Below, piece after piece: positions 3,914-26,019 of a stretch of DNA of 35,992 nt. The DNA lies in the NCBI GenBank assembly GCA_030606265.1, contig JAUWGT010000003.1, positions 1 through 35,992 on the forward strand, given 5' to 3'. The notes beneath the pieces are model-generated. The model saw only the letters and a list, made by a program, of their open reading frames with translations. It was not told the origin of the DNA and ran no database searches. The DNA is from Candidatus Stahliibacteriota bacterium (GTDB lineage Bacteria; Hydrothermota; Tepidihabitantia; SM23-42). A program made the position numbers and the translations under genes. Each line of letters starts with the position of its first letter. Within the stretch, counting starts at the first letter, position 1.

Positions 3914-5305
3914 TCATGCCAGAACTACTTTGTCGCGTCCAGATAATTTCCCTTCGTACATTGCTTTATCTGCCTGACCGATCAAGTCGTCGCGGGTTTT
4001 TGCATCATCAGGATAAGTTGCAACGCCAAGCGTAATAGAGATGTTGAATTTTTTATTACTGAATGCATAAAAGGACTCCTGGCTGATCTCTTTTCTGACC
4101 CGCTCAGCGATAACCCGGGCAGTCTTCTTGTCAGTACGAGGAAGAATGATAATGTACTCATCTCCACCGTACCGTATCACTACGTCCTCGTTTCTCACGA
4201 CCCGCTTTATCCTTTCCCCGACATACCTTAGCGTTTCACTGCCGACCAGATGTCCATAATTATCATCCACGAGTTTAAAAAAATCAATATCAAGAAAGAT
4301 CAGGGAAAGCACGACTTTCGATGATTTTCGGCTATTCAAATAGCTATCAAGATATCTATTACAAAAACGTACATTATATAGCTGCGTAAGGTCATCGATC
4401 AACGTGGCCTCTTCCATTTTACGGTACATGGTCGCATTTTGTAATGCAATGGTCACGTGAGCTACGAGATTCTCAAATATATCAAGGTCGTCACGGGTGA
4501 ACGGTTCACCACCAATCTTATTGACGACTTCAACGACGCCGATGATTTTTTCGCGACTGCGCATGGGAACACAAAGAATTGATTTCGTGATGAATTTCGT
4601 TTTCTTATCGAGACCAGAGTAGAATCTTGGATCCTTGGATACCTCGGGAACAATCAAAGACTGACCATACCGAGCGACCCAGCCAGCAACGCCCTGGCCA
4701 ACCTTCAATCTCAGGCCTAAAAGTTTCTTCCCGGCTTCACCCGCAACTGCTTCAAAGACAAGTTCGCTTTGGTCATGGTCAAGCAGCAGTATTGACCAAC
4801 CCTCAGCTCTTATTAAATCTGCGGTTTTCTCCATTATGATATGGAGAATTTCTTTCGGTTTTAGAGACGAACTTATTGCCTGAACGACCTCATTAAGTGT
4901 TCGCAGTTCCTGGATCTTTTGTTTGAGTGAAGCCATTGCCTTCATGTTTGTAAGGACTTTTTTTCTATTCTTCATCGCTTTAGCGACGACTTGCTTAAAA
5001 AAATCTGCTCGGTAGGGTCTAGTGATCAATCCTTCTATACCTACGAAAATAAGTTTTTCATGATCAATTTCAATCGCCCTATCAGTTATTAAAATGATCG
5101 GAACGGTCCCGTCCATTTTCCTCAGGCGTTCAAGTATCTCCACTGCCGATCCGTCAAAGATCAGCAAGTCAAATTTCTTCTTTCTCAAACGTTTCTTGAT
5201 ATCTTCGAGTTTTACCACTGCAGACCAATCAAGCCCCAGTTCCTGCAAATTGCGCGCCATCGTGGCAAGCCGCAGACGATCATTGTCATAGATAAGAGCT
5301 TCCAT
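3914..5305 (-). CDS. Diguanylate cyclase: atypical REC, coiled coil, GAF, GGDEF (start corrected to ATG 5305)
   Basis: DDLTQLYN, DIDFFKLVDDNYGHLVG, RYGGDEY with RNED I-site; GAF (GQGVAGWV, DPRF, SILCVPM, VNK); TAATG overlap with upstream stop. Confidence 0.92.
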   Translation of the reverse strand: MEALIYDNDRLRLATMARNLQELGLDWSAVVKLEDIKKRLRKKKFDLLIFDGSAVEILERLRKMDGTVPIILITDRAIEIDHEKLIFVGIEGLITRPYRADFFKQVVAKAMKNRKKVLTNMKAMASLKQKIQELRTLNEVVQAISSSLKPKEILHIIMEKTADLIRAEGWSILLLDHDQSELVFEAVAGEAGKKLLGLRLKVGQGVAGWVARYGQSLIVPEVSKDPRFYSGLDKKTKFITKSILCVPMRSREKIIGVVEVVNKIGGEPFTRDDLDIFENLVAHVTIALQNATMYRKMEEATLIDDLTQLYNVRFCNRYLDSYLNSRKSSKVVLSLIFLDIDFFKLVDDNYGHLVGSETLRYVGERIKRVVRNEDVVIRYGGDEYIIILPRTDKKTARVIAERVRKEISQESFYAFSNKKFNISITLGVATYPDDAKTRDDLIGQADKAMYEGKLSGRDKVVLA

Positions 5306-7569: not shown

Positions 7570-9986
7570 TTCGTCGCCTCCGAGAAAACCTCAAAGAGAA
7601 ACTTCCCGCGCCCGCCTTTTTCATCCTTGATCTCACCAGTTTCATCAATCTCAATATCAAAATCACCCAGCATTATCTTAAGACTACCTGGATGTGAAAT
7701 CTCCTGGCCCAATTGTGTTACGAATATTTTATATAGGTCAATGATAAAACCTCTTCTTGTAAATTTCTGATTTATCCAGTATTCAAGACCCTGTTCGATA
7801 TTCAGCAGAAGTGGATCGATTCTTAACCCTGCTTCACTCAAGAAAGAAAATTTGTTAACATTTAATAGCAAATTGTAAACTGTGGCATCATCAACGATTA
7901 CTGTCGATTTAGCCTTTGCTTTAACCTTCGAATAGAAATTGGCTTCTCGGACAAGCATACCTGTAACATCGAGTTCACCAAAGGCATTCTTGTCCAAGAA
8001 TATTTCTTTGGGGTATACTCCTGAAGCTATCCCAACGCCGATTTGAAAAATGGATCGGTATGAAGGCGGCAGGGCTGCGTAGGTAGCACCCTCGAAATTG
8101 ATCTTGCGTTTTTCTGCCTCCCTGAACCAATCCTGGTATTTACCTATGTTCTCCTGCACAAAACTCTCCGCGACTTGGACCATTTCCAAACCGCTCCTTA
8201 CCGCTGATAGTACACTGCCTGCCTCAAGCTCCGCGGTTTCATCGTTCTTTAGAGCCTGGTGGTTAGCTGAAAAGATGGCAATGCCGCCGTCACCAGTATC
8301 TTTTATTGGAATACCGCCGTATTTTTCGACAACCGATAACATTGACTCCTGGAAGAAATTTCTTATCTCGCTTTCGCGTTTCGCATCTCTCAATTTCGTT
8401 CCCATAAATGTGGAACCTCTGATATCATAGATAAATATCGAAACCAATTCTTTGTAGCGCGAAATATTGAGTAGTGGATGTTCACTCTTTTCCGCGGGGC
8501 TAATCTTAATGTCTTTCTCAATCATTGAAACCTTACCAGCCAAAGCCTCCTCAGCAAGGTAGCGGATACCTTCTGCCGGTACAGCATCTGATAACTTGGG
8601 ATAATAATCAATCAATTCTTCTAACAGGAATGATTTAACGAGGGGTAGTATTATTTCTTTATTTATCGCTTGCACTCTTCTTATAATCTTTGCTGTGTCG
8701 TACTTCTCCTTTAGGAAACCGCTCACTCGGTACCTGTTCATCACCTCCATCGCCTCTTTATTCCCCTTGATTTCTCCAAGCGCTTCCTTAATCATCCCCT
8801 GCAACTTTTCATCATCAACTTTCTTATCGCCGCTGAATGTTAAAATTATGTACGGATCCCATTCATTTTTCATAATGAATTTTTGAAGATCGCCTGGTTT
8901 AAAATTCATAATGCCATTCAGCTCCTTCTCTTTCTGAACATATTCCTGATACTGATTTTTCAAAATGCGTAAATCGTAGGCACTGCTGATAAGATTACGG
9001 CGCAATCTTTTTATCATATTGTCGATCGATGCTTCGGTTGAGAAATTCTCCACCAGATTTACTAATTTACCTCTTATCGCACTCATCGTTTCTTTTATCT
9101 TGCTACGTGTTGCTAAGACCTTCTCATCTATTTCTTCTTTCTTATTCTTCACTATTTTCGTCTTTTCATATGCTTTCTTCTTGAGCAATTCAATGATCTC
9201 AGTGAGACTAGCTTCATCAGGGAAGAAGAAATGCTCCTTGAATATCTCGCGGACATTGTCATTGGTTAAAATCGTCAATTTATCTATTAAATTAAGAACC
9301 CTTGTTTTTGTTTCAGTATAATAGGTGGTCATAATGCTTTTTGAAATAGCGGTGTACAGATTCTCTGGTAGTCCTTGTTGAAGAAAATTCCTGGTCAACA
9401 ACTTCATTGTTTCGCCGCGGTCACAGCGCGGCAAAAGTGGGATTTTCTCATATGTATCTCTGATCAATTTATCATTGACTATGAGGTCTTTTGTCAATGA
9501 ATTCCTGATGTAATTGAATAGCTGGTTCACGACAACACCAAAACGTTCAGCGATCACCATCCTGTTTTCAACTGGTGTATCATAGGTATGCTTGGTCAGA
9601 AGGTCACGCAGGAGTTTTCTGTTGACAATTTCGAAAATAAGTATTTTGTTACTATCTTTGGCGACAAATCGTTTGTATATCTCAAATACATTCTCACTGT
9701 ATCGTTCAAAGAACTTCTCCCATTTGTTGACCATCGATTGGTCTGACAAAAAATTCAGATAAGTAACAACAAACTCTTCTTGCAGTGAGAAAATCTTACG
9801 ACCCAAATACACCAATTCCCTGCCGCCCTTATTTTCAAGTACATCAAGAAACCCATCGGCTTCGACGAATTGCTTCAATACACTAATGTAGCGCTTAAAA
9901 TCGACCGCATCACGGTATGTCTTTGCGAGATTCTTATAATAAGGTGTTTCAAGTATCAATATGTCTTCGAATTCATTTCTCTGCAT
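7566..9986 (-). CDS. Large helical protein with C-terminal divergent class III nucleotidyl cyclase-like domain (paralog A)
   Basis: SIFIYDIRGST, IKDTGDG, FQIGVGIASG and DVTGMLVREAN; K/E-rich coiled-coil middle; start overlaps the mltG end. Confidence 0.72.
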   Translation of the reverse strand: MQRNEFEDILILETPYYKNLAKTYRDAVDFKRYISVLKQFVEADGFLDVLENKGGRELVYLGRKIFSLQEEFVVTYLNFLSDQSMVNKWEKFFERYSENVFEIYKRFVAKDSNKILIFEIVNRKLLRDLLTKHTYDTPVENRMVIAERFGVVVNQLFNYIRNSLTKDLIVNDKLIRDTYEKIPLLPRCDRGETMKLLTRNFLQQGLPENLYTAISKSIMTTYYTETKTRVLNLIDKLTILTNDNVREIFKEHFFFPDEASLTEIIELLKKKAYEKTKIVKNKKEEIDEKVLATRSKIKETMSAIRGKLVNLVENFSTEASIDNMIKRLRRNLISSAYDLRILKNQYQEYVQKEKELNGIMNFKPGDLQKFIMKNEWDPYIILTFSGDKKVDDEKLQGMIKEALGEIKGNKEAMEVMNRYRVSGFLKEKYDTAKIIRRVQAINKEIILPLVKSFLLEELIDYYPKLSDAVPAEGIRYLAEEALAGKVSMIEKDIKISPAEKSEHPLLNISRYKELVSIFIYDIRGSTFMGTKLRDAKRESEIRNFFQESMLSVVEKYGGIPIKDTGDGGIAIFSANHQALKNDETAELEAGSVLSAVRSGLEMVQVAESFVQENIGKYQDWFREAEKRKINFEGATYAALPPSYRSIFQIGVGIASGVYPKEIFLDKNAFGELDVTGMLVREANFYSKVKAKAKSTVIVDDATVYNLLLNVNKFSFLSEAGLRIDPLLLNIEQGLEYWINQKFTRRGFIIDLYKIFVTQLGQEISHPGSLKIMLGDFDIEIDETGEIKDEKGGRGKFLFEVFSEATK

Positions 9987-12319: not shown

Positions 12320-13068
12320 TTATTAAAACCATCATCCTCGGTATTATCCAGGGCCTTACTGAATTTTTGCCAGTATCAAGCTCAGGTCATCTTGCCATCC
12401 TTGAGAAATATTTTGGCATCGCCGATCCGGTAGTTTTGGCGATCTTCTTGCATTTCGGTACTTTTCTTGCGACCGTGGTATTTTTCGCCAGACCTATCGC
12501 CGAGCTCTTTAAAGGTGTGTTCAAAGGTAAAAAAGCAAGCATCCATTATGCCCTAAATATTATTGTCGGTTCTGTTCCCATCATTATCTTTGCTTTATTA
12601 TTGAGAACGCAAATCGAAGAGACTTTTACAAACATAACAATTATAAGTATCTTCTTGGGTGTAACCGGACTCGTGCTTATTATGACCATGATTTGCAGGA
12701 AGCACAATAAGCGAATCAGTGCCTTTTCTGCACTGGTCATTGGTTTAGCACAGATGTTTGCTCTATTCCCAGGGATTTCACGATCTGGTATGACAATCTC
12801 AGCTGGGCTATTTTCAAAAATCAGTCCTGAAGAATCCTTCAAATTTTCATTCTTATTGTCCTTACCTGCGATCCTTGGGGCCAATCTTCTGGAACTAGGA
12901 AAAATATCAGTTATAGATGACCCGATCAGTGTTTTGATCGGTATGTTTTTCAGCTTTGTTTTTGGCCTCATCGCTTTGATGATATTGCGCCGGTTAGTCC
13001 ATAAGTATTTTCATCTTTTTGGTATCTATTGCTTGGTAATAAGTATTCTTATACTGCTTTTCAAATGA
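12316..13068 (+). CDS. uppP: Undecaprenyl-diphosphate phosphatase
   Basis: QGLTEFLPVSSSGHL and PGISRSGMTI motifs. Confidence 0.95.
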   Translation: MIIKTIILGIIQGLTEFLPVSSSGHLAILEKYFGIADPVVLAIFLHFGTFLATVVFFARPIAELFKGVFKGKKASIHYALNIIVGSVPIIIFALLLRTQIEETFTNITIISIFLGVTGLVLIMTMICRKHNKRISAFSALVIGLAQMFALFPGISRSGMTISAGLFSKISPEESFKFSFLLSLPAILGANLLELGKISVIDDPISVLIGMFFSFVFGLIALMILRRLVHKYFHLFGIYCLVISILILLFK

Positions 13069-15005
13069 AGAAAATAGTATTTTGGATATTAGTTTTCTTC
13101 GTTGCTCAAGAGTGTTTTGGCAAGGTAGAAAAATATCGAAAAGACAATCTGCTGATTGAAAATATCCCAGCCATACCAGATGAATTGGTGCAGCAACTAA
13201 ATCCGTATTTAAATACGCGTTATGCATCTTTTCGCGGTTGGCTACCGAATAATAAAGGCATGCTCATCCGAACACGCCTGGCTGAGGTTTCGCAAATTCA
13301 TCTTGTTGAAGTACCAAAAGGCTTTCGCCAACAACTTACTTTTTCGCAAGAACCATTGAATGCAGTATATGTCTGCCCAAATGGACAAAAAGCTTTTTTC
13401 CTTTTTACCAGTGACTCGGCAGGCAATGAAAAATACCAGATTTACAAACATAACTATCAAACCGGCAAGCAGCAGTTATTAACTGATGGAAAAGCAAAGT
13501 ATGGCGCTATAGTTTGGTCAAATAAAGGTAATAAATTCGCCTTTCGCAGTACAATGAGAAACGGCAAGGACTTTGATATCTACCTCGGCTCTGTTAGAAA
13601 AGGAAAAGCTTTCACAAGGCTATGTAAAAATAGCGGTTATTGGGCACCAATTGAATTCTCTCCTGATGACAAAAAACTTCTGGTAAAGCAATATATTTCA
13701 TCAAATGAATCGTATTATTATATCTTGGATCTGAACACCAAGAGCTTGAGCCAGATAAATCCAAATGATTCAGCAATTGCCTATGGCGTAGCACACTGGG
13801 CAAAGCATGGATCAGGGATCTATATAGTTTCTGATCAATACAGTGAATTCAAACAGCTTCTATACTATGATTTGAAAACAAAAAATAAAAAAATCTTAAC
13901 AAAAAATATACCTTGGGATATCGAAGAATTCGAGTTGTCTCCAGCTGGCGACACCATTACCTTGATAAGTAATGAAGATGGTATAAACAAACTCTATTTT
14001 CTTAACACTAAGACACATTCGATCAGCCAGGCGCGCTTACCTCAAGGTATAATATATAATATTGAGTATAAACCAGATGGTGGAAAATTGGCGATGGTTA
14101 TAAGCACGCCTAAATCACCGACTGATGTCTATACCTTGGACCTCAAACATAAAACATTCACACGCTGGACCTATAGTGAGACCGCAGGTCTTGATACCGC
14201 TCGGTTTATCCAACCTCAGCTGATTCATTATCCAACATTCGATAGTGTCGACGGGGCACCGCGTCTCATCCCAGCATTTTATTTCAAGCCCACAGAATCT
14301 AAACCACCCTATCCAGCGCTAATCATCTGCCACGGCGGACCAGCTGTGCAATATGTCCCCAGTTTTTCGCCAATAACCCAATTCTATTTAGATGAACTAG
14401 GCATTGCGGTCATTGCGCCGAATATCCGGGGTTCATCTGGCTATGGAAAAGAATACATGTCCCTTGACAATACGTATAATAGGGAAAACTCGGTACGTGA
14501 TATCGGTGCTCTGCTCGATTGGATTGCAGAGCAACCTGAATTAGATGCATCGCGTGTCGCAATTATCGGTGGCTCATATGGTGGTTATATGGTGCTGGCG
14601 GCAATGATCCATTATCCAAAGCGTATCCGTTGCGGAATTGAATCTATCGGTATCAGCAATTTCGTTACTTTCTTACAAAATACTGGCAAGTACCGTCAGG
14701 ATTTAAGAAGGCAAGAGTATGGTGATGAACGCGACCCTGAAATGCGTAAATTCTTAGAACAGATATCGCCTTTGACCAATGCTCATAAAATTACTAAACC
14801 TTTGTTTGTAGTTCAGGGATTGAATGATCCGCGCGTACCAGTTACCGAAGCAGAACAAATTGTCAAAGCAGTACGAAAAAACAAAGTTGATGTCTGGTAT
14901 CTTCTTGCTGAGGATGAAGGGCACGGCTTTGCAAAAAAACCAAACCGCGATTTCTATAATCAAGCAAAGATGTTATTCTTGAAAAAATATCTATTGGGGA
15001 AATAA
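13065..15005 (+). CDS. Secreted S9 family (prolyl oligopeptidase/acylaminoacyl) peptidase (start corrected to ATG 13065)
   Basis: Signal-peptide-like MKKIVFWILVFF; beta-propeller repeats; HGGP, GGSYGG, NDPRV and EGHGF catalytic motifs; ATGA overlap with uppP. Confidence 0.92.
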   Translation: MKKIVFWILVFFVAQECFGKVEKYRKDNLLIENIPAIPDELVQQLNPYLNTRYASFRGWLPNNKGMLIRTRLAEVSQIHLVEVPKGFRQQLTFSQEPLNAVYVCPNGQKAFFLFTSDSAGNEKYQIYKHNYQTGKQQLLTDGKAKYGAIVWSNKGNKFAFRSTMRNGKDFDIYLGSVRKGKAFTRLCKNSGYWAPIEFSPDDKKLLVKQYISSNESYYYILDLNTKSLSQINPNDSAIAYGVAHWAKHGSGIYIVSDQYSEFKQLLYYDLKTKNKKILTKNIPWDIEEFELSPAGDTITLISNEDGINKLYFLNTKTHSISQARLPQGIIYNIEYKPDGGKLAMVISTPKSPTDVYTLDLKHKTFTRWTYSETAGLDTARFIQPQLIHYPTFDSVDGAPRLIPAFYFKPTESKPPYPALIICHGGPAVQYVPSFSPITQFYLDELGIAVIAPNIRGSSGYGKEYMSLDNTYNRENSVRDIGALLDWIAEQPELDASRVAIIGGSYGGYMVLAAMIHYPKRIRCGIESIGISNFVTFLQNTGKYRQDLRRQEYGDERDPEMRKFLEQISPLTNAHKITKPLFVVQGLNDPRVPVTEAEQIVKAVRKNKVDVWYLLAEDEGHGFAKKPNRDFYNQAKMLFLKKYLLGK

Positions 15006-15154
15006 ACAGGTGTTGTTCAAAGTTAAAGGCGGAGCAGCCTGTATTGTTTTATGGCATTGTTATATGAATAAAAGATTTTAACGAAAAACGATTAACGAAA
15101 AACAGCTCGAACCGCGATGTCTATTAACGATCAATTAATCTGTAAGGAGGTTTT

Positions 15155-15628
15155 ATGAAAATATTAGTCGGTTACTATTCAAAAACAGGACATACAGAAA
15201 AGATGGCAGAAGCTATTGCTCAAGGCATCAGGAAAGAAAATGTAACGGTTGAATTAAAGAAGGTAAAAGATATCAGTCCTGATGAATTGCTCGAGTTTGA
15301 AGCCATTATATTTGGTTCACCCACCTATTATGGTATCATGGCTGCAGATTTGAAACAACTGTTCGATGAAAGTGTAAAACACCATGGCAAGCTATCAGGG
15401 AAAATCGGCGGGGCGTTTACTACAAGCGGAATAATGGGTGGTGGTGGGGAAACGACGATACTAAGTATCCTTGAGGCACTCCTGGTCCACGGCATGATTG
15501 TGATTGGCGATGCGCGTACGCAGCACTATGGTCCATTGGCAATTGGGGACCCAGATGGAAATGCGATCGATACGTGCAAAAAATACGGACAGAAAATAGC
15601 CGAATTAACAAAGAAAATCTTCGGATAA
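15155..15628 (+). CDS. Flavodoxin / WrbA-family NAD(P)H-dependent FMN protein
   Basis: YYSKTGHTEKMA, FGSPTYYG, GKIGGAF, GGGETT; SD AAGGAGG. Confidence 0.9.
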   Translation: MKILVGYYSKTGHTEKMAEAIAQGIRKENVTVELKKVKDISPDELLEFEAIIFGSPTYYGIMAADLKQLFDESVKHHGKLSGKIGGAFTTSGIMGGGGETTILSILEALLVHGMIVIGDARTQHYGPLAIGDPDGNAIDTCKKYGQKIAELTKKIFG

Positions 15629-15790
15629 GCCCCTGACAAAAAATCCAAAAGATCATTGATCGCTTTCAATATTTTATATTTAATGAAGGGCTGGTGAAAA
15701 AACACCTGATCGAGTTGCGGGTTCTTAACCAGAGTGGATCGTAACCTCTTTGATTGATTGAGGTTCCACTGTGCTTTGGAAATAAAAAAA

Positions 15791-15874
15791 CCGTAAGTCA
15801 CGACTGAAAGGGGTGAAGGATAGAAAAAGTACATTCCTTTTCTAAAAGCCCACCTTTTGTTTCTTGACTTACGG
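15791..15874. other. Long imperfect hairpin; possible structured RNA or terminator
   Basis: CCGTAAGTCA/TGACTTACGG perfect 10-bp IR enclosing further nested pairings; followed by T7 on the minus strand. Confidence 0.45.
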
Positions 15875-15994
15875 CAACTAAGTATATATTACGACTGTGA
15901 AAAATCTGTGAAATCGGTGATATTGAAGATAGTGCGGCTGATTATTCTAAATAACTAAACCCCTGATCTCTCGAACTTGTCGAGCGGTTTGCTC

Positions 15995-16023
15995 TTGACA
16001 TCGATCCTGCTACGGTGTATATT
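15995..16023 (+). promoter_or_regulatory. Promoter for C25 protease gene
   Basis: TTGACA, 17-bp spacer, TATATT; SD GGAGG at 16037-16041. Confidence 0.55.
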
Positions 16024-16047
16024 TCATATGAAGACTGGAGGATAATC

Positions 16048-18186
16048 ATAAAGCTATTTGTTTTATTTTTCATTATTACATCTGTCTCAGCGCACGTTCT
16101 AAATATCACAGTACCGGCGCCGTATTATCAGATCGTAGATGATAGAATTATTGCAGAAAACTGCGTCTATATTAACCCACCTGGTGCACCAAACCTGCCG
16201 GGTCGAAAAATATCCATTGCATTACCACCAGGCGCGCTTGTGCAATCTGTCAGTTTTTATGGTTCGCGAAAAAGGATTGCGCACGTGGCAATACCTCCTG
16301 CGCAACCGGCTTTACCCATGGTGAATGATGATGTGGCGAAAAGTCTTTTGAAACGATTTGAATATCTAAAAAACGAATACAGAAATTCTAAGGTGATTTA
16401 TCCGGAGGGTTATGGCGTATTACTGTCAAAAGGTGGTTTGAGGAAATACGTATTGGCTGATATTATCTGCAATCATTTTGCTTATGAGCCATCGACCAAG
16501 ACCCTCTACTGTACTGAGGACATCAATGTACAAATACACTATGAACTACCAGCCCAGCAGAGCGAAAGAGCGCATTTTTGGCAAGGTCTGCTCAATGATA
16601 TTACTTATGACAAAATTGTCCAGGGGTTCATTCATAATTGGGAGCAAGCAAAAGTGTGGTATCATACTGATGCACCACAAAGGGCAAATGGTTATTATAT
16701 AATAATCCCATCAGCACTGCAGAATTCAGTCGACACCTTGGTCATTCACCGACAAAACCAGGGGTATGATGTCAATGTTGTAACCAAGGAATATATTGAG
16801 GCGAATGTTGCTGGCGATGATCTTCCGCAAAAGATAAGGAATTACCTGCGCATGAATATGGTAGATATCGAGGCAGCACTGCTCGTTGGTTTTGCAACCG
16901 ATTTACCATGGCGTTCACTTGTTCCCTTCAATAATTTACCATATAGCCCCTGGTATAATCCAGATTATTCACCCATACCAAGCGACTTGTACTATGCAGA
17001 GTTAACTGACCACGATACACTTTCCTGGAATAGTGACCGTGATTTCTATTATGGCGAGGTTTATGACGAAAATATGCAGCCTAATGGTGAAGACAACCCT
17101 GATTATCATGCAGATATTCACGTCGGCAGAATTCCCTTTAGCAATCCAAGTACAATACAAAATATATGTGAAAAGATGATCGCTTTTGATATCAATACAG
17201 ATATATCTTATAAGACTGCTCCTTTATTAGCCGGTGCATTGTATTATTTTGCCAATGAAAATAACGGTGGTAATGCAAGAATGGATGGTGCAGATTTTTG
17301 TGAACAGCTCTTGATTGATTCCATCTTCGAACGGGCAAATACCATATCACTCTACGAAAAAGCCGGCATTCACCCATGTACGATTTCGTGCACTGATTCT
17401 CTAACAAGAAACAATCATATTCTCTACTGGCAAAACAAAGGTGTCATGTATGAATGTCATCATGGTAACTACAATATGTATGCGCGTAAAGTCTGGGCAT
17501 GGGACGATGGTGACAGTATCCCCGAGAGCAATGAAATACAATGGCCGACCAGCTTGCATATGAGTGATGTCTATCAGCTCGACAATAACCACCCGGCAAC
17601 AACATTTTTGAGATCTTGTCTGTGCGGTAAACCTGAAGTCGCAAGTCTTGGGGCTCAGCTTTTGCACCATGGTTCTTCAGCTGTAATTAGCAGTTCACGG
17701 ATTTCCTGGATGACATATGCAGATCCCGGCGGCATACCCTATCACTTCTACGAAAGACTCGTAAAGGATACAACTTTAAGCAATGGGATTATTGGCAATG
17801 CATATGATATAGCTCGGACCGATTTTATGGATGTAACAGGATTTTGGTTGTGTGCTTACCATTATAACCTGTTTGGCGATCCGGCATTGCGCCAGTTTGG
17901 AAGATTTGTTGCAGTTGAAGAATCGGCTACGAAGAATATCATTACTTCTTTTTCAATATGCCCAAACCCTTCAACCGGACAAATAACGATCAGGTTAAAT
18001 ACTCCAGATAATAGGGAAATCAAACTTGACATATACGACAAAACAGGTCGCTTTGTTAATCAGTTTTATGCGGGATACCTAGAAGGTACTGATGCTGTGA
18101 ATATTGATTTACCAGCCGGTATTTATTTTATAAAGTTTACCGATGGTACTTTGACAGAATTTAAGAAAGTAGTAGTCATCAAATAG
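16048..18186 (+). CDS. Gingipain-like peptidase C25 with propeptide and T9SS-type C-terminal sorting domain; probable ATA start
   Basis: Propeptide PGAPNLP; IRNYLR, SDLYYAEL, VGRIP, HHG and SC catalytic dyad, YNLFGDP; C-terminal PNP...IYD..GR..LPAGIYF...KKVVVIK. Confidence 0.88.
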   Translation: MKLFVLFFIITSVSAHVLNITVPAPYYQIVDDRIIAENCVYINPPGAPNLPGRKISIALPPGALVQSVSFYGSRKRIAHVAIPPAQPALPMVNDDVAKSLLKRFEYLKNEYRNSKVIYPEGYGVLLSKGGLRKYVLADIICNHFAYEPSTKTLYCTEDINVQIHYELPAQQSERAHFWQGLLNDITYDKIVQGFIHNWEQAKVWYHTDAPQRANGYYIIIPSALQNSVDTLVIHRQNQGYDVNVVTKEYIEANVAGDDLPQKIRNYLRMNMVDIEAALLVGFATDLPWRSLVPFNNLPYSPWYNPDYSPIPSDLYYAELTDHDTLSWNSDRDFYYGEVYDENMQPNGEDNPDYHADIHVGRIPFSNPSTIQNICEKMIAFDINTDISYKTAPLLAGALYYFANENNGGNARMDGADFCEQLLIDSIFERANTISLYEKAGIHPCTISCTDSLTRNNHILYWQNKGVMYECHHGNYNMYARKVWAWDDGDSIPESNEIQWPTSLHMSDVYQLDNNHPATTFLRSCLCGKPEVASLGAQLLHHGSSAVISSSRISWMTYADPGGIPYHFYERLVKDTTLSNGIIGNAYDIARTDFMDVTGFWLCAYHYNLFGDPALRQFGRFVAVEESATKNIITSFSICPNPSTGQITIRLNTPDNREIKLDIYDKTGRFVNQFYAGYLEGTDAVNIDLPAGIYFIKFTDGTLTEFKKVVVIK

Positions 18187-18549: not shown

Positions 18550-18577
18550 TTGACTTTGGTTATTTTATGACTATAAT
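18550..18577 (+). promoter_or_regulatory. Promoter for tdh cluster
   Basis: TTGACT, 16-bp spacer, TATAAT; SD GGAG before ATG 18593. Confidence 0.7.
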
Positions 18578-18592
18578 TTACCTGGAGAAATC

Positions 18593-19645
18593 ATGGCAAA
18601 AATGAAAGCAGTTGTGAAAACGAAACCAGAACCAGGTGCTGAACTAGTTGAAATCGACATCCCTACACCAAAACCTGATGAGGTCCTAGTTAAAGTTCTG
18701 GCAACATCAATTTGTGGTACAGATTTACATATTTACGAGTGGAATAAATGGGCCCAGAACCGCATACGCAATATCCCCCAGGTCATGGGTCATGAATTAT
18801 GTGGCGAAGTTATTGAACTGGGAACAAATGTAAGAACCGTACAGAAAGGTGACGTAATTTCAGCTGAAACACACATCGCTTGCAATCATTGCTATCTCTG
18901 TCACACCGGCAATGCACATATTTGCATCAATGGTCGCATCTTTGGGGTTGATGTAAATGGTGTGTTCGCTGAATACGCAGTCGTGCCTTCATCCAATGCC
19001 TGGATATTAGATAAGAAAATCCCCAGAGATTTCGCGTCCGTAATGGAACCGTTGGGCAATGCAGTCCATACTGTCTTGGCTGGTGAAATCAACGGTAATA
19101 CTACCTTGATAACGGGTTGCGGTCCGATTGGAGTAATGAGCATCGCTGTTGCACGAATCTGCGGAGCGACAAAGATAATCGCTACCGACATAAATGAATA
19201 CCGACTCCAAATGGCAAAGAAAGCTGGTGCCGACCTGGTGCTCAATCCAAAAAAAGATGACATTGTACAAAGAGTATTGCAGGAAACCAATGGTCTGGGT
19301 ATTGATGTTGTTCTCGAAATGTCTGGAGTTTCCACTGCAATTCAACAAGGTTTTGATTGTCTACGTCCGGGTGGCAGATTTTCAATCCTCGGTATACCTG
19401 ACAAACCTATGGTGATAGATATCGGCAAAGCAATTGTCTTTAAATATGCTACTGTTCAAGGTATTAATGGTCGTCTTATGTTCTCGACCTGGCATAAAAC
19501 ATCACGTTTCTTGAGTTCGGGTCGGCTTAACCTGGACTCCATCATTACTCATCGTTTTCGTCTTGAAGAATTTGAAAAAGGTATGGAATTGATGAAATCT
19601 GGAAACTGCGGTAAAATACTGCTTTACCCCCACCCGAAAGACTAA
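18593..19645 (+). CDS. tdh: L-threonine 3-dehydrogenase (Zn-dependent)
   Basis: TSICGTDLHIYEW, GHE, C..C..C.......C structural Zn site, EPLGNAVHT, GCGPIG, GINGR.MF.TW, ITHRF. Confidence 0.93.
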   Translation: MAKMKAVVKTKPEPGAELVEIDIPTPKPDEVLVKVLATSICGTDLHIYEWNKWAQNRIRNIPQVMGHELCGEVIELGTNVRTVQKGDVISAETHIACNHCYLCHTGNAHICINGRIFGVDVNGVFAEYAVVPSSNAWILDKKIPRDFASVMEPLGNAVHTVLAGEINGNTTLITGCGPIGVMSIAVARICGATKIIATDINEYRLQMAKKAGADLVLNPKKDDIVQRVLQETNGLGIDVVLEMSGVSTAIQQGFDCLRPGGRFSILGIPDKPMVIDIGKAIVFKYATVQGINGRLMFSTWHKTSRFLSSGRLNLDSIITHRFRLEEFEKGMELMKSGNCGKILLYPHPKD

Positions 19646-19691
19646 TGAACTTCTCGATGCGCTTCGCTTACTCGAAGAAAAATTGTTATTC

Positions 19692-19885
19692 ACCCTCACC
19701 CCCGTATCAAGTACGGGGCAGGCTCTTACCCTCTCCCATCAAGAGGCTGTCGAAAAACTCCGCTTGTCATTGCGAGCGAACGAAGTGAGCATGGCAATCT
19801 CATTAATTCTCAATGCTCTCATAAGATTGCTTCGTCGTTTCACTCCTCGCAATGACGTTTATCGACAGGCTCATCAAGGGGAAGG
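19692..19885. repeat. Nested REP-like hairpin (CCCTCACCC...CCCTCTCCC..GGGGAAGG) interrupted by other palindromes
   Basis: Contains the CCCCGTA-TCAAG-TACGGGG palindrome and the MITE listed next. Confidence 0.6.
19743..19872. mobile_element. 130-bp MITE-like element
   Basis: 16-bp terminal IR GAGGCTGTCGAAAAAC / GTTTATCGACAGGCTC (14/16 match); flanking direct repeat ATCAA; internal GTCATTGCGAG...CTCGCAATGAC palindrome. Confidence 0.7.
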
Positions 19886-19926
19886 AAATATTATGATGTA
19901 TGGCTTACCCGCAATAACAGGATGAG

Positions 19927-20280
19927 ATGATCAAAGGAATTGGTGTCGACATTAACAGGATAAAAAGGTATAATAATGTAAAAAACAAAGACAGATTCCT
20001 GAAACAGTTCTTAAATAACGAAGAGATATCTGAAGCAAATAAAACAAATAATAAAAACCACTACCCGATGGCGCTTTTCGCAATAAAAGAAGCTATTTTC
20101 AAGGCTTTCAAAATAGGATTGTATTTTGGTTCTTACTGGTACGATATTAGTATTAGAAAAGATTTCAAAGTAAATTTATCTGGCTATTTTGGGAAAATGA
20201 TAAAAAGCAGGACAAGAATTTTGGTTTCCAAGACTTGTTCAAAGCAATATGCATTGAGTTTGGCTCTTATCGAAGAATAG
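19927..20280 (+). CDS. acpS: AcpS-type 4'-phosphopantetheinyl transferase
   Basis: IKGIGVDI, FL...EI, FAIKEAIFKA; 117 aa. Confidence 0.85.
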   Translation: MIKGIGVDINRIKRYNNVKNKDRFLKQFLNNEEISEANKTNNKNHYPMALFAIKEAIFKAFKIGLYFGSYWYDISIRKDFKVNLSGYFGKMIKSRTRILVSKTCSKQYALSLALIEE

Positions 20281-20288
20281 GAGGTACT

Positions 20289-21989
20289 ATGGGCAATATA
20301 GGTTCATATGAAGAAAAGTACAGAAATTTCGACTGGAAGATATCTGAACAGGAACTCGAATATGGAAAAGATGGTATGTATAACCTTGCCCATTATTGTT
20401 GCGACCGCATCTGTGAAAAAGGTAATGGTGAAAAACTGGCGCTTCTTTGGGAAGGTTTTAAAGGTGAAGAAAAAGAATTTACGTATCATGATCTAAGCGT
20501 ATATAGCAATGTGTTCGCGAAGCATTTACAGGATATTGGATTAAAACCAGGAGACCGTATCTGCTTATTCATGGAACGTATACCTGAGCTTTTTATCTCT
20601 TTTTTGGGGACTTTGAAAATGGGTGGTATCGTACAACCCCTCTTTTCAGCTTTTGGGGAAGATGCCTTATTTACCCGATTAGAAGATGCCGGGACTAAAG
20701 CAATATTCACAACGAGAAAACATGTTAGGAAAATCAGGAGGATCCGGGACAAACTCCCTGCTCTGGCAAAAGTAATAATTGTCGATGCTGGCGATAAACC
20801 CTTGGAAAAAGATGAAATCGCTTTTTCCATGGAGGCTGCTCCAAAGCCAAAGAATTTTGAAGTTTACAAAGCTAGTCCAGAAACACCTTCAGTTCTCCAC
20901 TATACATCGGGAACAACCGGTAAACCAAAAGGCGCCCAGCACGTTCATGCTTCAATAATTGCTCAGTATATTACGACAAAATGGGCGCTTGATGTTAAAC
21001 CCGATGATATCTACTGGTGCACCGCTGACCCTGGCTGGGTAACTGGAACATCGTACGGCATCATCGGTCCCTGGTCAAACGGCACAACACAAGTAATCCT
21101 CGACTCCGGGTTCAGTTCTGCGAAGTGGTATCAATTTATTGAGAAACATAAGGTCACTGTATGGTACACAGCACCAACTGCCATTCGTTTGCTCATGAAA
21201 GATGGTACTGAAGTAGTGAGAAAATTTGATCTTTCTTGCCTTAGACACCTGATCAGTGTTGGCGAACCGCTCAATGCTGAGGCGGTAATATGGTCAAAAG
21301 AAGCTTTTGGTAAACCATTTTATGATTCGTATTGGCAAACAGAAACTGGCGCCATTGTTATCACGAATTATCCAGGCATGGAGGTTAAACCTGGCTCCAT
21401 GGGTAAGGCATTCCCTGGTATTAAGGCAATAGTTGTCGATCAAGAAACCTTTGAGCCAATAACAACACCAGGAACAGTCGGTCTCATTGCGCTTAAACCA
21501 AGCTGGCCATCCATGTTCCGGACCTACTGGAACAACAAGAAAATGTACGACAGCAAATTCAAAAAAGGCTGGTATATCTGTGGGGATCGTTCAAGCATTG
21601 ATGATAACGGTTATTTCTGGTTTGTCGGACGTGATGATGACGTGATAAATACAGGTGGCCATCTTGTTGGTCCTTTTGAAATTGAATCAGCGCTTTTAGA
21701 ACATGAAGCGATCGCTGAATCAGCAGCTGTCGGCAAACCCGACCCGGTTAATATGGAAGTGGTAAAAGCATTTATTGCTCTAAAAGCAGGGTTTGAACCG
21801 AACGCTGATTTGGAATTGAGTATCATGAATTTTATAAGAAAAAAATTATCGCCTCTCGCCATGCCACAGGAAATAGAATTCGTAAAATCTCTACCTAAAA
21901 CAAGAAGCGGTAAGATAATGAGACGACTTCTCCGCGCCAAGGAATGGGGTGAAGAAATCGGTGATACATCTACCTTAGAAGATGATTAA
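20289..21989 (+). CDS. acsA: Acetate--CoA ligase-like AMP-forming acyl ligase (start corrected to ATG 20289)
   Basis: YTSGTTGKPKG, WCTADPGWVTG, SVGEPLN, YWQTETG, GR.DD, PKTRSGKIMRR; SD AGGAGG. Confidence 0.85.
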   Translation: MGNIGSYEEKYRNFDWKISEQELEYGKDGMYNLAHYCCDRICEKGNGEKLALLWEGFKGEEKEFTYHDLSVYSNVFAKHLQDIGLKPGDRICLFMERIPELFISFLGTLKMGGIVQPLFSAFGEDALFTRLEDAGTKAIFTTRKHVRKIRRIRDKLPALAKVIIVDAGDKPLEKDEIAFSMEAAPKPKNFEVYKASPETPSVLHYTSGTTGKPKGAQHVHASIIAQYITTKWALDVKPDDIYWCTADPGWVTGTSYGIIGPWSNGTTQVILDSGFSSAKWYQFIEKHKVTVWYTAPTAIRLLMKDGTEVVRKFDLSCLRHLISVGEPLNAEAVIWSKEAFGKPFYDSYWQTETGAIVITNYPGMEVKPGSMGKAFPGIKAIVVDQETFEPITTPGTVGLIALKPSWPSMFRTYWNNKKMYDSKFKKGWYICGDRSSIDDNGYFWFVGRDDDVINTGGHLVGPFEIESALLEHEAIAESAAVGKPDPVNMEVVKAFIALKAGFEPNADLELSIMNFIRKKLSPLAMPQEIEFVKSLPKTRSGKIMRRLLRAKEWGEEIGDTSTLEDD

Positions 21990-22046
21990 AACAAAAGTTA
22001 CTATAATGCAAAAATGCTTAAAGATGTTAGAATTTACCATTATAAT

Positions 22047-22082
22047 TTTAGGTATTTAGGTGTTTAGGCATTTTAGGTATTT
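22047..22082. repeat. Short tandem 8-9-mer repeat (TTTAGGyr x4)
   Basis: TTTAGGTA TTTAGGTG TTTAGGCA TTTTAGGTA. Confidence 0.6.
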
Positions 22083-22102
22083 GATTTATTCGAGGAGGAA
22101 TT

Positions 22103-22357
22103 GTGAGTGAAGAAACTAAGAACTTAATCATTGATTATGTAAAAAAAGAGTATCTAGAAGAAGAAGATGAGCAAGAAGTCGATGAGAACACACCGTTAAT
22201 TTCCAGCGGTATTGTTGATTCTTTTTCAATGGTTTCTCTAAAAATGTTTCTGGAAAAGAAATTTAGCGTTAAAATCCCCGATGAGAAAGCAACAACTGAA
22301 GCCTTTGACTCGGTAAATAATATTATGGATCTTCTCAAAGAGTTTAATGTCAGATGA
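22103..22357 (+). CDS. Acyl carrier protein (stand-alone)
   Basis: 84 aa, acidic; GIVDSFSMV phosphopantetheine site; SD GAGGAGG; GTG start. Confidence 0.92.
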   Translation: MSEETKNLIIDYVKKEYLEEEDEQEVDENTPLISSGIVDSFSMVSLKMFLEKKFSVKIPDEKATTEAFDSVNNIMDLLKEFNVR

Positions 22358-22366
22358 GGAGGTATA

Positions 22367-23614
22367 ATGGCTTATAGCGATAAAGCAAAAGATTTTTACA
22401 AAAGTGAACTGAGCGGAATGCATAAAGCCGGCACTTTTAAAGAAGAAAGGTTTATTGAATCACCCCAAGCGGCAAATATCTCGGTTGAATACCCGGTTGG
22501 GTCTCCTCCAAAAGAGGTTTTGAACTTCTGTGCAAATAACTACCTTGGTCTTTCCAGCCATCCAGAAGTTGTAAAAGCTGCCCATGAAGGACTTGACAGC
22601 AGAGGATATGGTATGTCTTCAGTCCGCTTTATTTGCGGTACCCAGGATATCCATGATAAGCTTGAGAAGAAACTGAGTGAGTTTCTTGGCACTGAAGCTA
22701 CCGTGCTTTTTGCTTCGTGCATGGATGCTAATGCCGGTGTATTTGATGTCGTGCTCGGGAAAGAAGATGCGATGATCTCTGATCGTCTGGTTCATGCTTC
22801 TATCGTTGACGGCATGCGTCTGTGCAAAGCTCAGTTATATAATTACAAACACTCTAATATGGATCATCTTGAGGAAAAGCTGAAGGAAACTCAAGATTGT
22901 CGATTCCGCATGATTATCACGGATGGTGTATTTTCCATGGATGGTGATATTGCTAAGCTCGACAAAATTGTGGAACTCGCAAAGAAATATGATGCCATGG
23001 TCATGGTCGATGACTCACATGCGACAGGTTTTATGGGTAAAAATGGTCGCGGCACTCACGAACACTGTGGCGTGCTTGGAGAAATAGATATTATCACCAC
23101 AACCCTTGGCAAAGCATTGGGTGGAGCATCAGGTGGCTGCGTAAGCGGACCAAAAGAAATCGTCGACCTCTGTCGACAGCGTGCCCGTCCTTATCTCTTC
23201 TCCAATACTGTACCACCGGTTATTATTACGGCAGCGAACAAAGTAATAGATTTGATTTCCAAAACAACTGACCGCCGGGATAAACTGGAAGAGAACACGA
23301 AGTACTTCAGGGAAAAAATAACAACTTCAGGTTTTGACATCAAAGAAGGTGTCCACGCCATTGTACCGATAATGCTGTACAATGCGAAGCTCGCTCAGGA
23401 TATGGCGCGTGATATGTATAGTGAAGGCATCTACGTTATCGGCTTTTCTTTCCCAGTAGTGGCAAAAGGCCAGGCAAGAATCCGAGTCCAGATATCCGCC
23501 GGTCACGAAAAAGAGCATCTTGATAAAGCAATCGCTGCATTCACCAAAGTAGGTGAAAAATACAAGATACTTGGAAAAGGGAAAAAAGAAATAATTGAAA
23601 TGTACGGATATTAA
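22367..23614 (+). CDS. kbl: Glycine C-acetyltransferase (2-amino-3-ketobutyrate CoA ligase)
   Basis: NFCANNYLGL, SVRFICGTQDIH, DGVFSMDG, DDSHATG, TLGKALGGASGG, RPYLFSN, ARIRVQISA. Confidence 0.92.
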   Translation: MAYSDKAKDFYKSELSGMHKAGTFKEERFIESPQAANISVEYPVGSPPKEVLNFCANNYLGLSSHPEVVKAAHEGLDSRGYGMSSVRFICGTQDIHDKLEKKLSEFLGTEATVLFASCMDANAGVFDVVLGKEDAMISDRLVHASIVDGMRLCKAQLYNYKHSNMDHLEEKLKETQDCRFRMIITDGVFSMDGDIAKLDKIVELAKKYDAMVMVDDSHATGFMGKNGRGTHEHCGVLGEIDIITTTLGKALGGASGGCVSGPKEIVDLCRQRARPYLFSNTVPPVIITAANKVIDLISKTTDRRDKLEENTKYFREKITTSGFDIKEGVHAIVPIMLYNAKLAQDMARDMYSEGIYVIGFSFPVVAKGQARIRVQISAGHEKEHLDKAIAAFTKVGEKYKILGKGKKEIIEMYGY

Positions 23615-23780
23615 TCCGCTTGAAGCGGATTTGGTTACGTTTGCCGGTTGCGTTGAACGAAATGCGAAACGGTTGCGTAGTCGGGATTTGTTTTGGACAA
23701 AATACGCCAAACGAATATCGACAACGAATCGCTTTTCGAAACCAAGAACCGCGTTTCGAGTTATCGAAGATTAGTAAACT

Positions 23781-24910
23781 ATGACTAATAATACAGCAGA
23801 TGTCATCATAATCGGCGGTGGTATAATAGGATGTGCCACGGGTTTTTATTTAGCAGAAAAAGGATTGAAGGTTTACCTGCTTGAGAAAGACTATCTGACC
23901 GCTGGATCTACAGGTCGCTGCATCGGTGGTATTCGGCAACAGTTTTCCACTAAACTCAGTATCAGAGTAGCCATGGAATCGATGAAAAAATTTGAGTCCA
24001 TGACCGAGGTATTAGATCAGGATGTTGAATTCCATCGCGGTGGCTATCTATTTTTGGCCCATAGTGAAGCTAAGAAAACAACCTATCTTGAATTGATCAA
24101 ATTGCAACAAAGTATGGGGCTTGATGTCGACTATATCAGTCGCGATGACATCGAAAAAATCGTACCAGGTATAAGCACGGATGATTTATTAGGTGGTGCT
24201 TACTGTCCAAGTGATGCTCAGGCAAACCCATTCTTATGTGTTGATGGCTATGCGAAACATATAAGAAAAAACGGCGCAGTCATCCCCCATAAAGAAATCA
24301 CCAGCATAAATATCAAAGCTGGCAAAGTGAGATCAATAACGACCAATGATAATGAAACATATTATGCACCAATAATCGTTAATGCTGCAGGTCCGTTCGT
24401 AAAAAACGTTGCACAACTCGTCGACATTGATGTACCTATTGAAGCAGAACGCCATGAAGCTTTGATAACTGAACCCATGGAAAGATTCTTTGATATGATG
24501 ATCGTTGATTACCGCAATGATGGATGCTACTTTAACCAGAAGTGGGGTAAAGGGAGTATTATTGGTTGCTACACACCCAAACCAAATGCCCCTGGTCAAA
24601 GCTTAGGTACTTCATTTGAATTTGTCAAGGAAATGGGACGACGAACTGGTCGCTTAATCCCCGGATTGGCAAACATAAAGATTATTCGTCAATGGTCAGG
24701 GAGTTACGAAATGACCCCAGATGGTAATCCAATCCTTGACAAAACCGATATCCAGGGGTTTTATATTGTCGGCGGCATGTGCGGTCATGGGTTTATGTTA
24801 GGACCAGAGATTGGCTCGCTCGCCGCTGATTTCATCGCCGAAGGAAAAACTTCTTATGACATCAGCACCTTTGCCCTGAAACGAGATTATACCAGTAAAG
24901 AAGTGATGAA

Positions 24911-24914
<4 letters not shown>
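23781..24914 (+). CDS. FAD-dependent amino-acid oxidoreductase (DAO family; proline dehydrogenase/sarcosine oxidase beta-like)
   Basis: GGGIIG FAD motif, GSTGRCIGGIRQQFS, RQWSG.Y.MTPDGNP, GHGFM. Confidence 0.88.

Positions 24915-26019
<1,105 letters not shown>

Follow-up and report, generated by a model that had tools for sequence, protein, structure and literature searches.

Gene organization of the locus

The DNA examined here is a stretch of 35,992 nucleotides (the window, contig JAUWGT010000003.1 of assembly GCA_030606265.1) from a Candidatus Stahliibacteriota bacterium. It carries an operon in which tdh and kbl, the genes for L-threonine 3-dehydrogenase and glycine C-acetyltransferase, are separated by three further genes that encode an AcpS-type phosphopantetheinyl transferase, an Acs-type ligase and an acyl carrier protein (ACP). 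The order is tdh, acpS, ligase, ACP and kbl (18593-23614), followed by a flavoenzyme of the DAO family, all on the + strand. Comparison with related loci suggests that the Kbl of this operon, here called KblA, may exchange its acetyl group with the ACP rather than with coenzyme A (CoA). The genome to which the window belongs (G000, in which the window is contig C17) is a 2.28-Mb bin of 193 contigs that is 88.6% complete, and a contig search finds near-identical DNA in cold-seep and sediment metagenomes. The organisms named for near-identical ACPs assign it to candidate division WOR-3. The features of the locus are as follows.

18550..18577, + strand: candidate promoter-like site TTGACT-16-TATAAT, with 11 of 12 consensus matches, ending 16 nt 5' of the tdh start (consensus match only)
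18593..19645, + strand: tdh, L-threonine 3-dehydrogenase of the Zn-ADH family (TIGR00692, 472.1 bits, cut-off 458.35, full-length)
19646..19926, no strand assigned: repeat-like insert of 281 nt with an inverted repeat, absent from most relatives
19927..20280, + strand: acpS, dedicated AcpS-type phosphopantetheinyl transferase (PF01648, 45.3 bits, cut-off 25)
20289..21989, + strand: Acs-type AMP-forming ligase, proposed acetate:[ACP] ligase (NF003313, acetate--CoA ligase, 768.5 bits, cut-off 729)
22103..22357, + strand: dedicated 84-residue ACP, serine in GIVDSFSM (PF00550, 23.1 bits, cut-off 20.8)
22367..23614, + strand: kblA, proposed ACP-linked variant of glycine C-acetyltransferase with DRLVHAS (TIGR01822, 608.7 bits, cut-off 493)
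23781..24914, + strand: DAO-family FAD oxidoreductase, soxB/ThiO-like (PF01266, 218 bits; TIGR01373, 156 bits, below cut-off)

An initial annotation of the window had described the five genes as co-directional, with the ACP stop codon 9 nt from the kbl start and with no genes for fatty-acid synthesis (fab), polyketide synthases (PKS) or nonribosomal peptide synthetases (NRPS). These observations are confirmed in every detail. Each gene lies on the + strand at the coordinates listed and matches its family, the 9 nt between the ACP stop and the kbl ATG include a GGAGG, and no fab, PKS or NRPS family is detected by profile among the 28 other open reading frames (ORFs) of the window that were scanned. 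The ligase ORF opens at 20235; the ATG at 20289, preceded by AGGAGG, is the likelier start. The Kbl match to TIGR01822 is full-length and the only one over cut-off in the genome. Because Tdh, the ligase and Kbl all exceed curated NCBI equivalog cut-offs, annotation pipelines would label them simply as threonine dehydrogenase, acetate--CoA ligase and glycine C-acetyltransferase.

The transferase and the ACP had also been taken for a dedicated module, and the remainder of the genome bears this out. The AcpS of the cluster is a divergent second copy that scores 50.7 bits against TIGR00516, below the cut-off of 59.8. Another AcpS is encoded on contig C163 and the housekeeping acpP on contig C175, so the copies in the cluster are extra and dedicated. 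AcpS is the least conserved member of the operon, with 27-74% identity in relatives.

Two forms of the locus within the order

The comparison covered 41 genomes from this order, counting the window's own. Of these, 29 contain a close ACP homologue (at least 70% identical); a thirtieth match, at 33% identity, is unrelated. The ligase occurs in exactly the 29 ACP-bearing genomes, and the 12 ACP-less genomes contain no other Acs-like gene at E ≤ 1e-30. Tdh exceeds its cut-off in 35 of the 41.

Loci were fetched around the ACP (20) and, from ACP-less genomes, around tdh (11). Seventeen of the 20 ACP loci have all five genes in the order of the window (tdh-acpS-ligase-ACP-kblA, form A). An arrangement so often repeated is far beyond chance. 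The remaining three ACP loci comprise one with a tdh remnant only (G012), one in which acpS is not detected (G036) and one cut by a contig end (G020). Among the 11 tdh loci, eight show tdh followed directly by kbl (tdh-kblB, form B), with no acpS, ligase or ACP; the other three end at a contig edge, one of them inside acpS. The DAO gene follows kbl in 18 of the 20 form-A loci and in five of the eight form-B loci (three full-length, two with more than half aligned). Four of the eight form-B loci also have the same split tgt gene as the window. Thus, relatives carry either form A or form B at the same genomic place.

Kbl changes together with the cassette. Its identity is 76-99% within form A and 78-94% within form B, compared with 67-75% between the two forms, and 33 alignment columns have no residue common to form-A and form-B Kbls. 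Tdh does not co-vary with the cassette: among same-genus genomes it is 97-99% identical, whichever form of the operon they carry. A DNA-level comparison of the window with a same-genus form-B genome (G001) locates the difference: tdh and DAO are 95.5% and 94.8% identical, whereas kbl is 53-78% identical per 60-nt window over about 1080 nt before identity jumps to 95-98% over the last 120-170 nt. The encoded Kbl proteins are identical over roughly the last 55-60 residues. This jump marks a recombination breakpoint near codon 360 of kbl, and the divergence of kbl between flanks of about 95% identity indicates that the cassette and its own Kbl were exchanged together. What is exchanged comprises acpS, the ligase and ACP genes, and about the first 360 codons of kbl.

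The G001 locus contains one further irregularity. A copy of the kbl-DAO spacer and the first DAO bases (G001:C72, locus L047, 2735-2984) sits between tdh and kblB and is 92.6% identical to window positions 23603-23858; the normal copy downstream is also present. The duplicated spacer is likely a scar of cassette exchange.

KblA differs from canonical Kbl at conserved positions

The PLP-lysine and catalytic motifs of KblA (TLGKALGGASGG, VDDSHA, DGVFSMDG and GQARIR) are identical or almost identical in alignment to those of the solved Kbls 3tqx, 7v58, 1fc4 and 7bxp. Solved Kbls match at 460-482 bits, and their alignments stop near residue 400-401 of 415. The C-terminal extension noted in the initial annotation is therefore real, but it is not specific to ACP-linked enzymes, since the Kbls of ACP-less relatives are also 415 residues long.

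The replacement of the usual DxLNHAS by DRLVHAS, remarked on in the same annotation, proves to be a signature of all ACP-linked Kbls. Sequences were grouped by position only, as ACP-adjacent Kbl or other Kbl of the same loci; the first group has D[RK]L[VI]HAS in 63 of 63 cases and the second has DxLNHAS in 29 of 29. The Asn of this motif, at position 142, is invariant in canonical Kbls (37 of 37) and shared by the four solved Kbls, whereas all 84 KblA sequences have Val or Ile, Val being the residue in the window. All 37 canonical Kbls have Arg or Lys at position 157, about 14 residues after the His, and the four solved ones have Arg. KblA lacks this basic residue, the four commonest residues there (Leu, Gln, Thr and Asn) accounting for at least 78 of 84 sequences. 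At position 140, Arg or Lys is present in 84 of 84 KblA sequences, and Arg in one of the 34 canonical Kbls (of 37) that are listed. About 10 further changes are specific to the KblA clade.

All 35 sampled KblA sequences fall on one side of a single branch in a tree of 72 rows, with a support of 100 in the Shimodaira-Hasegawa-like approximate likelihood ratio test (SH-aLRT). The clade adjoins the form-B Kbls of WOR-3 and one group of second Kbls (SH-aLRT 97). The tree is to be read as unrooted, and the row picked as outgroup (L006) is a non-homologue with a branch length of 10. As to published CoA-contact residues of Kbl or ALAS, section 6 of PMC13674496 names no nucleotide contacts that could be transferred to the present enzymes, and PMC9814548 yielded no relevant passage for the terms searched.

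The ligase keeps an acetate pocket and loses a CoA-binding arginine

The closest solved relative of the ligase is the 572-residue Acs 9g79 (B. subtilis AcsA type, PRK04319), with 566 bits. The acetate-pocket motif D[ST][YFW]WQTETG, including its Trp, is present in 84 of 85 module ligases, which argues for acetate or another very small acid as the substrate. The catalytic Lys (Lys542, of SGK) is kept in 78 of 78 full-length module ligases.

The three conserved CoA-binding Arg residues of Acs are not kept as a full set. The position of S. enterica Acs Arg526 is occupied by Leu (Leu459 in the window) in 78 of 78 full-length module ligases, and in 85 of 85 when scored by motif; all three bona fide Acs enzymes in the alignment have Arg. 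According to Meng et al. (PMC10455477), Arg191, Arg526 and Arg584 of S. enterica Acs are highly conserved and needed for CoA binding and the thioester step, and changes to the Arg526 equivalent of the M. thermautotrophicus enzyme decrease kcat 130-326-fold or make CoA unsaturable. The Arg191 equivalent is variable in the module ligases (Pro in 21, Gly in 19 and Arg in 13, among others), in a region where the alignment is uncertain.

Fusions and a predicted KblA-ACP complex

In some independent assemblies the ligase and the ACP form a single polypeptide. Logan and two NCBI assemblies (Vicinamibacterales) together supply three sequences of this in-frame fusion, which is 659 residues long. A 233-residue AcpS-ACP fusion occurs on two JGI contigs. 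Two other candidates, P0126 (ACP and Kbl) and P0127 (ligase and ACP), were rejected as fusions because they contain long Arg/Pro/Gly-rich stretches typical of frame errors.

For complex prediction, a KblA dimer and the ACP, each supplied as a 28-row alignment, were modeled in three runs alongside controls. The runs score 0.49, 0.49 and 0.06 by the interaction prediction score from aligned errors (ipSAE), compared with 0.04 for the best control, and the verdict of the tool is 'weak support'. They agree in at least 80% of contacts, with a predicted local distance difference test value (pLDDT) of at least 80 for the partner. In calibration, 58 of 80 solved complexes attained the mark, as did two of 110 mismatches; only seven of the 80 solved complexes did so with values up to 0.60, and so did both of the passing mismatches.

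Distribution across phyla

Two peptide patterns derived from the ACP alignment were searched in contigs representing one genome per species, yielding at least 600 stretches, of which at least 420 encode a relative. Neighboring genes were counted in the best 80 of these at least 420 loci, all of them from metagenome bins. The 80 loci come from WOR-3, Ignavibacteriota, Bacteroidota, Chlorobiota, Aminicenantes, Zixibacteria, Chrysiogenales, Calditrichota, KSB1, Thermoanaerobaculaceae and others, and ACP identity across phyla is 62-92%. The recurrent families are Kbl (66 loci), the ligase (63), the ACP, Tdh-like dehydrogenases (30) and AcpS (25); no further neighbor family is found in more than nine of the 80. 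The recurrent flanking genes that are annotated are housekeeping genes (GlmU-like, RsmB, ApbC, FtsE and LptF). The core of the module is ligase-ACP-Kbl. Kbl, ligase and ACP distances correlate across 59 loci (r = 0.73-0.88), but this is confounded by shared ancestry and was set aside as evidence of co-evolution.

Relation to known systems

The ligase-ACP-KblA module shows the same three-part logic as the AasR/AcpR/serine palmitoyltransferase (SPT) trio of Caulobacter and other 'Rhodobacteria', likewise with an ACP distinct from the housekeeping AcpP. As described in PMC9386255, that ligase acylates its own ACP only, the synthase prefers acyl-ACP over acyl-CoA, and the genes co-occur whenever the synthase is present. 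The trio differs in using a long fatty acid and serine to make a sphingolipid precursor, with a FadD-like ligase. The module described here would instead combine an Acs-type ligase, which has an acetate pocket, with a Kbl (glycine/acetyl) as its synthase. It is accompanied by Tdh, frequently also by a second Kbl of the canonical kind, and in many cases by an AcpS of its own.

Compared with the E. coli-type Tdh-Kbl pair (1FC4, 3TQX, 7V58 and 7BXP), the Tdh and Kbl of the operon are orthologous by curated hidden Markov model cut-offs, and form B in relatives is exactly this pair. KblA departs from it in having Val for the DxLNHAS Asn, no basic residue at 157 and Arg140, and in always adjoining a private ACP. 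Similarly, the module ligase has the full-length Acs architecture of B. subtilis-type AcsA and Syntrophus Acs1, with the acetate pocket and catalytic Lys kept. Unlike those enzymes, the module ligases have Leu at the Arg526 position, occur only with an ACP and are sometimes fused to it. The acetate:SH-[ACP] ligase CitC of citrate lyase is also AMP-forming and uses acetate to acetylate a thiol on a dedicated carrier subunit, but it belongs to an unrelated protein family, acts on a different prosthetic group and reactivates an enzyme complex.

In the literature searched, neither an ACP-linked Kbl nor an ACP-linked Acs is described, though supplements cited by PMC9386255 and PMC10455477 may hold more. 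An arrangement common to many phyla thus appears to be undescribed in print. New here are the two-form locus with its kbl breakpoint, the census of the Kbl signature, the Leu-for-Arg526 substitution of the ligase, the ligase-ACP fusion and the failed anticorrelation with thrC.

Proposed pathway

We put somewhat better than even confidence in the following interpretation. The locus would be a threonine/glycine operon in which a four-gene cassette (acpS, an Acs-derived ligase, a private ACP and KblA) stands in place of the ordinary, CoA-dependent Kbl; the acetyl group would be carried on the ACP instead of CoA, and the pathway would run preferentially in the cleavage direction. AcpS would prime the private ACP, and Tdh would interconvert threonine and 2-amino-3-ketobutyrate. 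KblA would catalyze the reaction 2-amino-3-ketobutyrate + holo-ACP <-> glycine + acetyl-ACP, and the ligase the reaction acetyl-ACP + AMP + pyrophosphate (PPi) <-> acetate + ATP + holo-ACP. The acetyl unit would stay on the thiol of its own carrier protein, outside the CoA pool throughout. In the direction favored for this lineage, threonine from peptides would be converted to glycine and acetate, with ATP regained by PPi-dependent reversal of the ligase, which a private and separately poised thioester pool would ease. The conserved gene order, the exchange of the cassette along with its Kbl, the family-wide substitutions in both enzymes and the ligase-ACP fusion are observed. From them we infer the thiol substrate of the ligase and KblA, the direction, and the identity of the acyl group, for which the retained Acs pocket indicates acetate.

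The initial annotation had already suggested that a ligase-loaded, dedicated ACP works with Kbl. That idea has gained support from the co-occurrence of ligase and ACP in 29 of 41 genomes, the co-variation of Kbl, the lost canonical residues, the fusion and the weak pass of the predicted complex, a body of support that is comparative rather than biochemical.

Several observations weigh against the proposal. Both the ligase and Kbl exceed NCBI equivalog cut-offs for CoA enzymes. In the ligase, the equivalent of Arg584, which contacts the 3'-phosphate of CoA, is Arg in 78 of 78 module enzymes, and a conserved basic patch (Lys144, Lys148 and Arg150) lies where Acs binds the CoA phosphates; these features fit retained use of CoA, or docking of an acidic ACP. 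The Arg191 site is uncertainly aligned, and by the same alignment the bona fide Acs 9g79 also lacks this residue. Overall, the thioester half-reaction of the ligase looks altered while a CoA-type phosphate contact remains, which cuts both ways. For KblA, the clade-specific residues are only presumed to lie near the thioester channel, and the KblA-ACP score is a weak pass that may also reflect memory of other carrier-protein complexes. A simple replacement story does not explain why a canonical Kbl is kept right beside KblA in 29 of the 80 loci. With respect to direction, AMP-forming ligases normally run towards the thioester, and the window's own genome is the one with ackA among the five genomes considered below.

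Direction of the pathway and alternative explanations

We lean only slightly towards cleavage over synthesis. The initial annotation had given priority to the latter: acetyl-ACP, loaded at the expense of ATP, would be condensed with glycine by KblA and the product reduced by Tdh to threonine, a route that would stand in for thrABC and should leave the cassette anticorrelated with those genes. Synthesis rests on the same evidence for an ACP link as cleavage does. If the private ACP were kept highly acetylated, the condensation could be driven by that pool, and both AMP-forming ligases and the AasR/AcpR/SPT trio work in the loading direction (PMC9386255). The anticorrelation, however, fails. ThrC is over cut-off in 31 of the 41 genomes, comprising 26 of the 29 with the cassette (the window's own included) and five of the 12 without, and two more of those 12 fall just below. 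Genus g6 might seem to suit a synthetic role, in that thrC is found in none of its five genomes yet three carry the cassette; the other two have the plain CoA form. The genus therefore holds both operon forms without thrC, and the cassette does not track thrC loss.

Gene context suggests a degradative setting, with the DAO-type amine oxidoreductase downstream of kbl in both forms and S9 and C25 peptidases upstream. The interchange of the cassette with a canonical kbl also counts in favor of cleavage, because the role of canonical kbl, as in the E. coli kbl-tdh operon, is threonine cleavage. Given these points, we consider the synthetic direction unlikely. The catabolic alternative offered by the initial annotation, in which ATP is obtained via acetyl-ACP, appears to fit the context at least as well as the synthetic route.

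A PPi economy in this lineage likewise speaks for cleavage. Of five genomes surveyed, a membrane H+-pyrophosphatase (H+-PPase) is present in all five, a soluble family-I pyrophosphatase was found in none, and ackA is over cut-off in one. Reversal of an AMP-forming ligase has a precedent in Acs1 of Syntrophus aciditrophicus, which makes ATP from the thioester, AMP and PPi (PMC4992975); the catalytic bias of Syntrophus Acs1 is treated in a 2026 preprint (PMC13404658). Acetate- and ATP-related enzymes show no pattern specific to either form, with ackA over cut-off in G000 only and SucD-like proteins and H+-PPase in five of five. Serine hydroxymethyltransferase (SHMT) is ambiguous as a clue to direction.

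The SHMT survey does give an observation of its own. A match of canonical strength (> 400 bits, PF00464) is found in only three of the 41 genomes, and a divergent protein of ~485 residues (125-144 bits) in 32; the window's own genome, 88.6% complete, has no SHMT match. The handling of glycine and C1 units in this order may be unusual.

It is improbable that the ligase and Kbl are ordinary CoA enzymes and that the ACP and AcpS, serving some other purpose (e.g., regulatory or an unrelated acyl transfer), are merely co-inherited with them. The scores of both enzymes over curated equivalog cut-offs are in keeping with this explanation, as are the alignment of all Kbl catalytic motifs with solved Kbls and the conservation of the acetate pocket, catalytic Lys and Arg584 equivalent in the ligase. 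Mere co-inheritance, though, is difficult to reconcile with a ligase that never occurs without the ACP among 41 relatives, and with a Kbl type that switches exactly with ACP presence (63 of 63 versus 29 of 29 by position; 20 versus 8 in the order). Further points against it are the loss of the Arg526 equivalent in 78 of 78 ligases, the existence of in-frame ligase-ACP fusions and the lack of any other conserved partner gene for the ACP in the 80 loci.

A different product, be it an aminoketone-derived small molecule (aminoacetone or a pyrazine-type signal), a lipid or sphingoid-like compound, or acetyl-ACP that primes fatty-acid synthesis, is very improbable: sphingolipid synthesis offers examples of alpha-oxoamine synthases that have private ACPs (PMC9386255) and the best NCBIfam match of the ACP is to an ornithine-lipid ACP (59.4 bits, below the cut-off of 130), but the acetate-pocket Trp in 84 of 85 ligases argues against long chains, KblA scores 608.7 bits as a Kbl and at most 323 bits as an SPT, lipid, PKS and NRPS genes are neither present in the window nor recurrent in the 80 loci, and it is Tdh and a second Kbl that recur as partners. 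A bypass of FabH by acetyl-ACP is not needed, as FabH is over cut-off in five of five genomes of both forms.

Neighboring features of the window

The tdh-acpS gap of the window is enlarged by the insert at 19646-19926, which contains a long inverted repeat and an 80-residue ORF (19683-19925) that matches no family. In most relatives the insert is absent and the gap is only about 5-60 nt, and a contig from run X19 joins position 19647 to 19933, with the insert missing. Many unrelated metagenome contigs contain its core (19824-19856), which suggests a dispersed element of the REP-like or miniature mobile kind. In an RNA library (run X20), contigs match parts of the ligase gene and of kbl at 95-99%; these are contigs only, which do not show transcription, and the stretches left uncovered are uninformative.

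Just upstream of the operon, positions 13029-18186 encode an S9-family peptidase, a WrbA/flavodoxin-like protein and a C25 peptidase with a sorting domain of the type IX secretion system. The S9 peptidase and flavodoxin-like protein hold the same upstream position in several relatives, and the C25 peptidase is matched in one fetched form-A locus. Two large, adjoining ORFs on the minus strand (5305-7569 and 7566-9986; 754 and 806 residues) match no Pfam family at E ≤ 1e-5. A pilMNO-secretin cluster is located downstream of the operon.

The tgt gene (queuine tRNA-ribosyltransferase, 24911-26019) is split into two overlapping frames, and the break falls exactly at an A9 run (GTAAAAAAAAAG, junction 25434-25442). 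The A9 run is present at this junction in 15 of 18 relatives' loci, 13 of which have the same frame shift; in locus L026 the run is interrupted (GAGAAAAAAGG) and both halves are in one frame. The split looks like a conserved recoding, by transcriptional slippage or a programmed frameshift, rather than an assembly error.

Implications

If the proposed pathway is correct, a whole clade of each of the textbook CoA enzymes Tdh, Kbl and Acs would work on a protein-bound thiol. Members of this clade, found in at least 420 species-level genomes of many, mostly uncultured, phyla, are now annotated as ordinary enzymes. The occurrence of KblA and KblB at one locus, between flanks that are ~95% identical, would provide a natural matched pair for studying the switch from CoA to ACP.

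A further possibility, which we hold tentatively and regard as somewhat doubtful, is that the operon constitutes a CoA-independent, energy-conserving branch of amino-acid fermentation. The acetyl group of threonine would be parked on the ACP, in a pool whose acetyl-ACP/holo-ACP ratio could be set apart from that of cellular acetyl-CoA, and the ligase reversed to make ATP from AMP and PPi, a new form of substrate-level phosphorylation that would be widespread in uncultured anaerobic phyla and hidden under the annotations 'acetyl-CoA synthetase' and 'Kbl'. More generally, an ACP-linked Kbl would carry the private-ACP principle of alpha-oxoamine synthases beyond lipid synthesis into central C2 and amino-acid metabolism, and would affect metabolic reconstructions of sediment and subsurface anaerobes with respect to their acetate, glycine and threonine fluxes and ATP yields.

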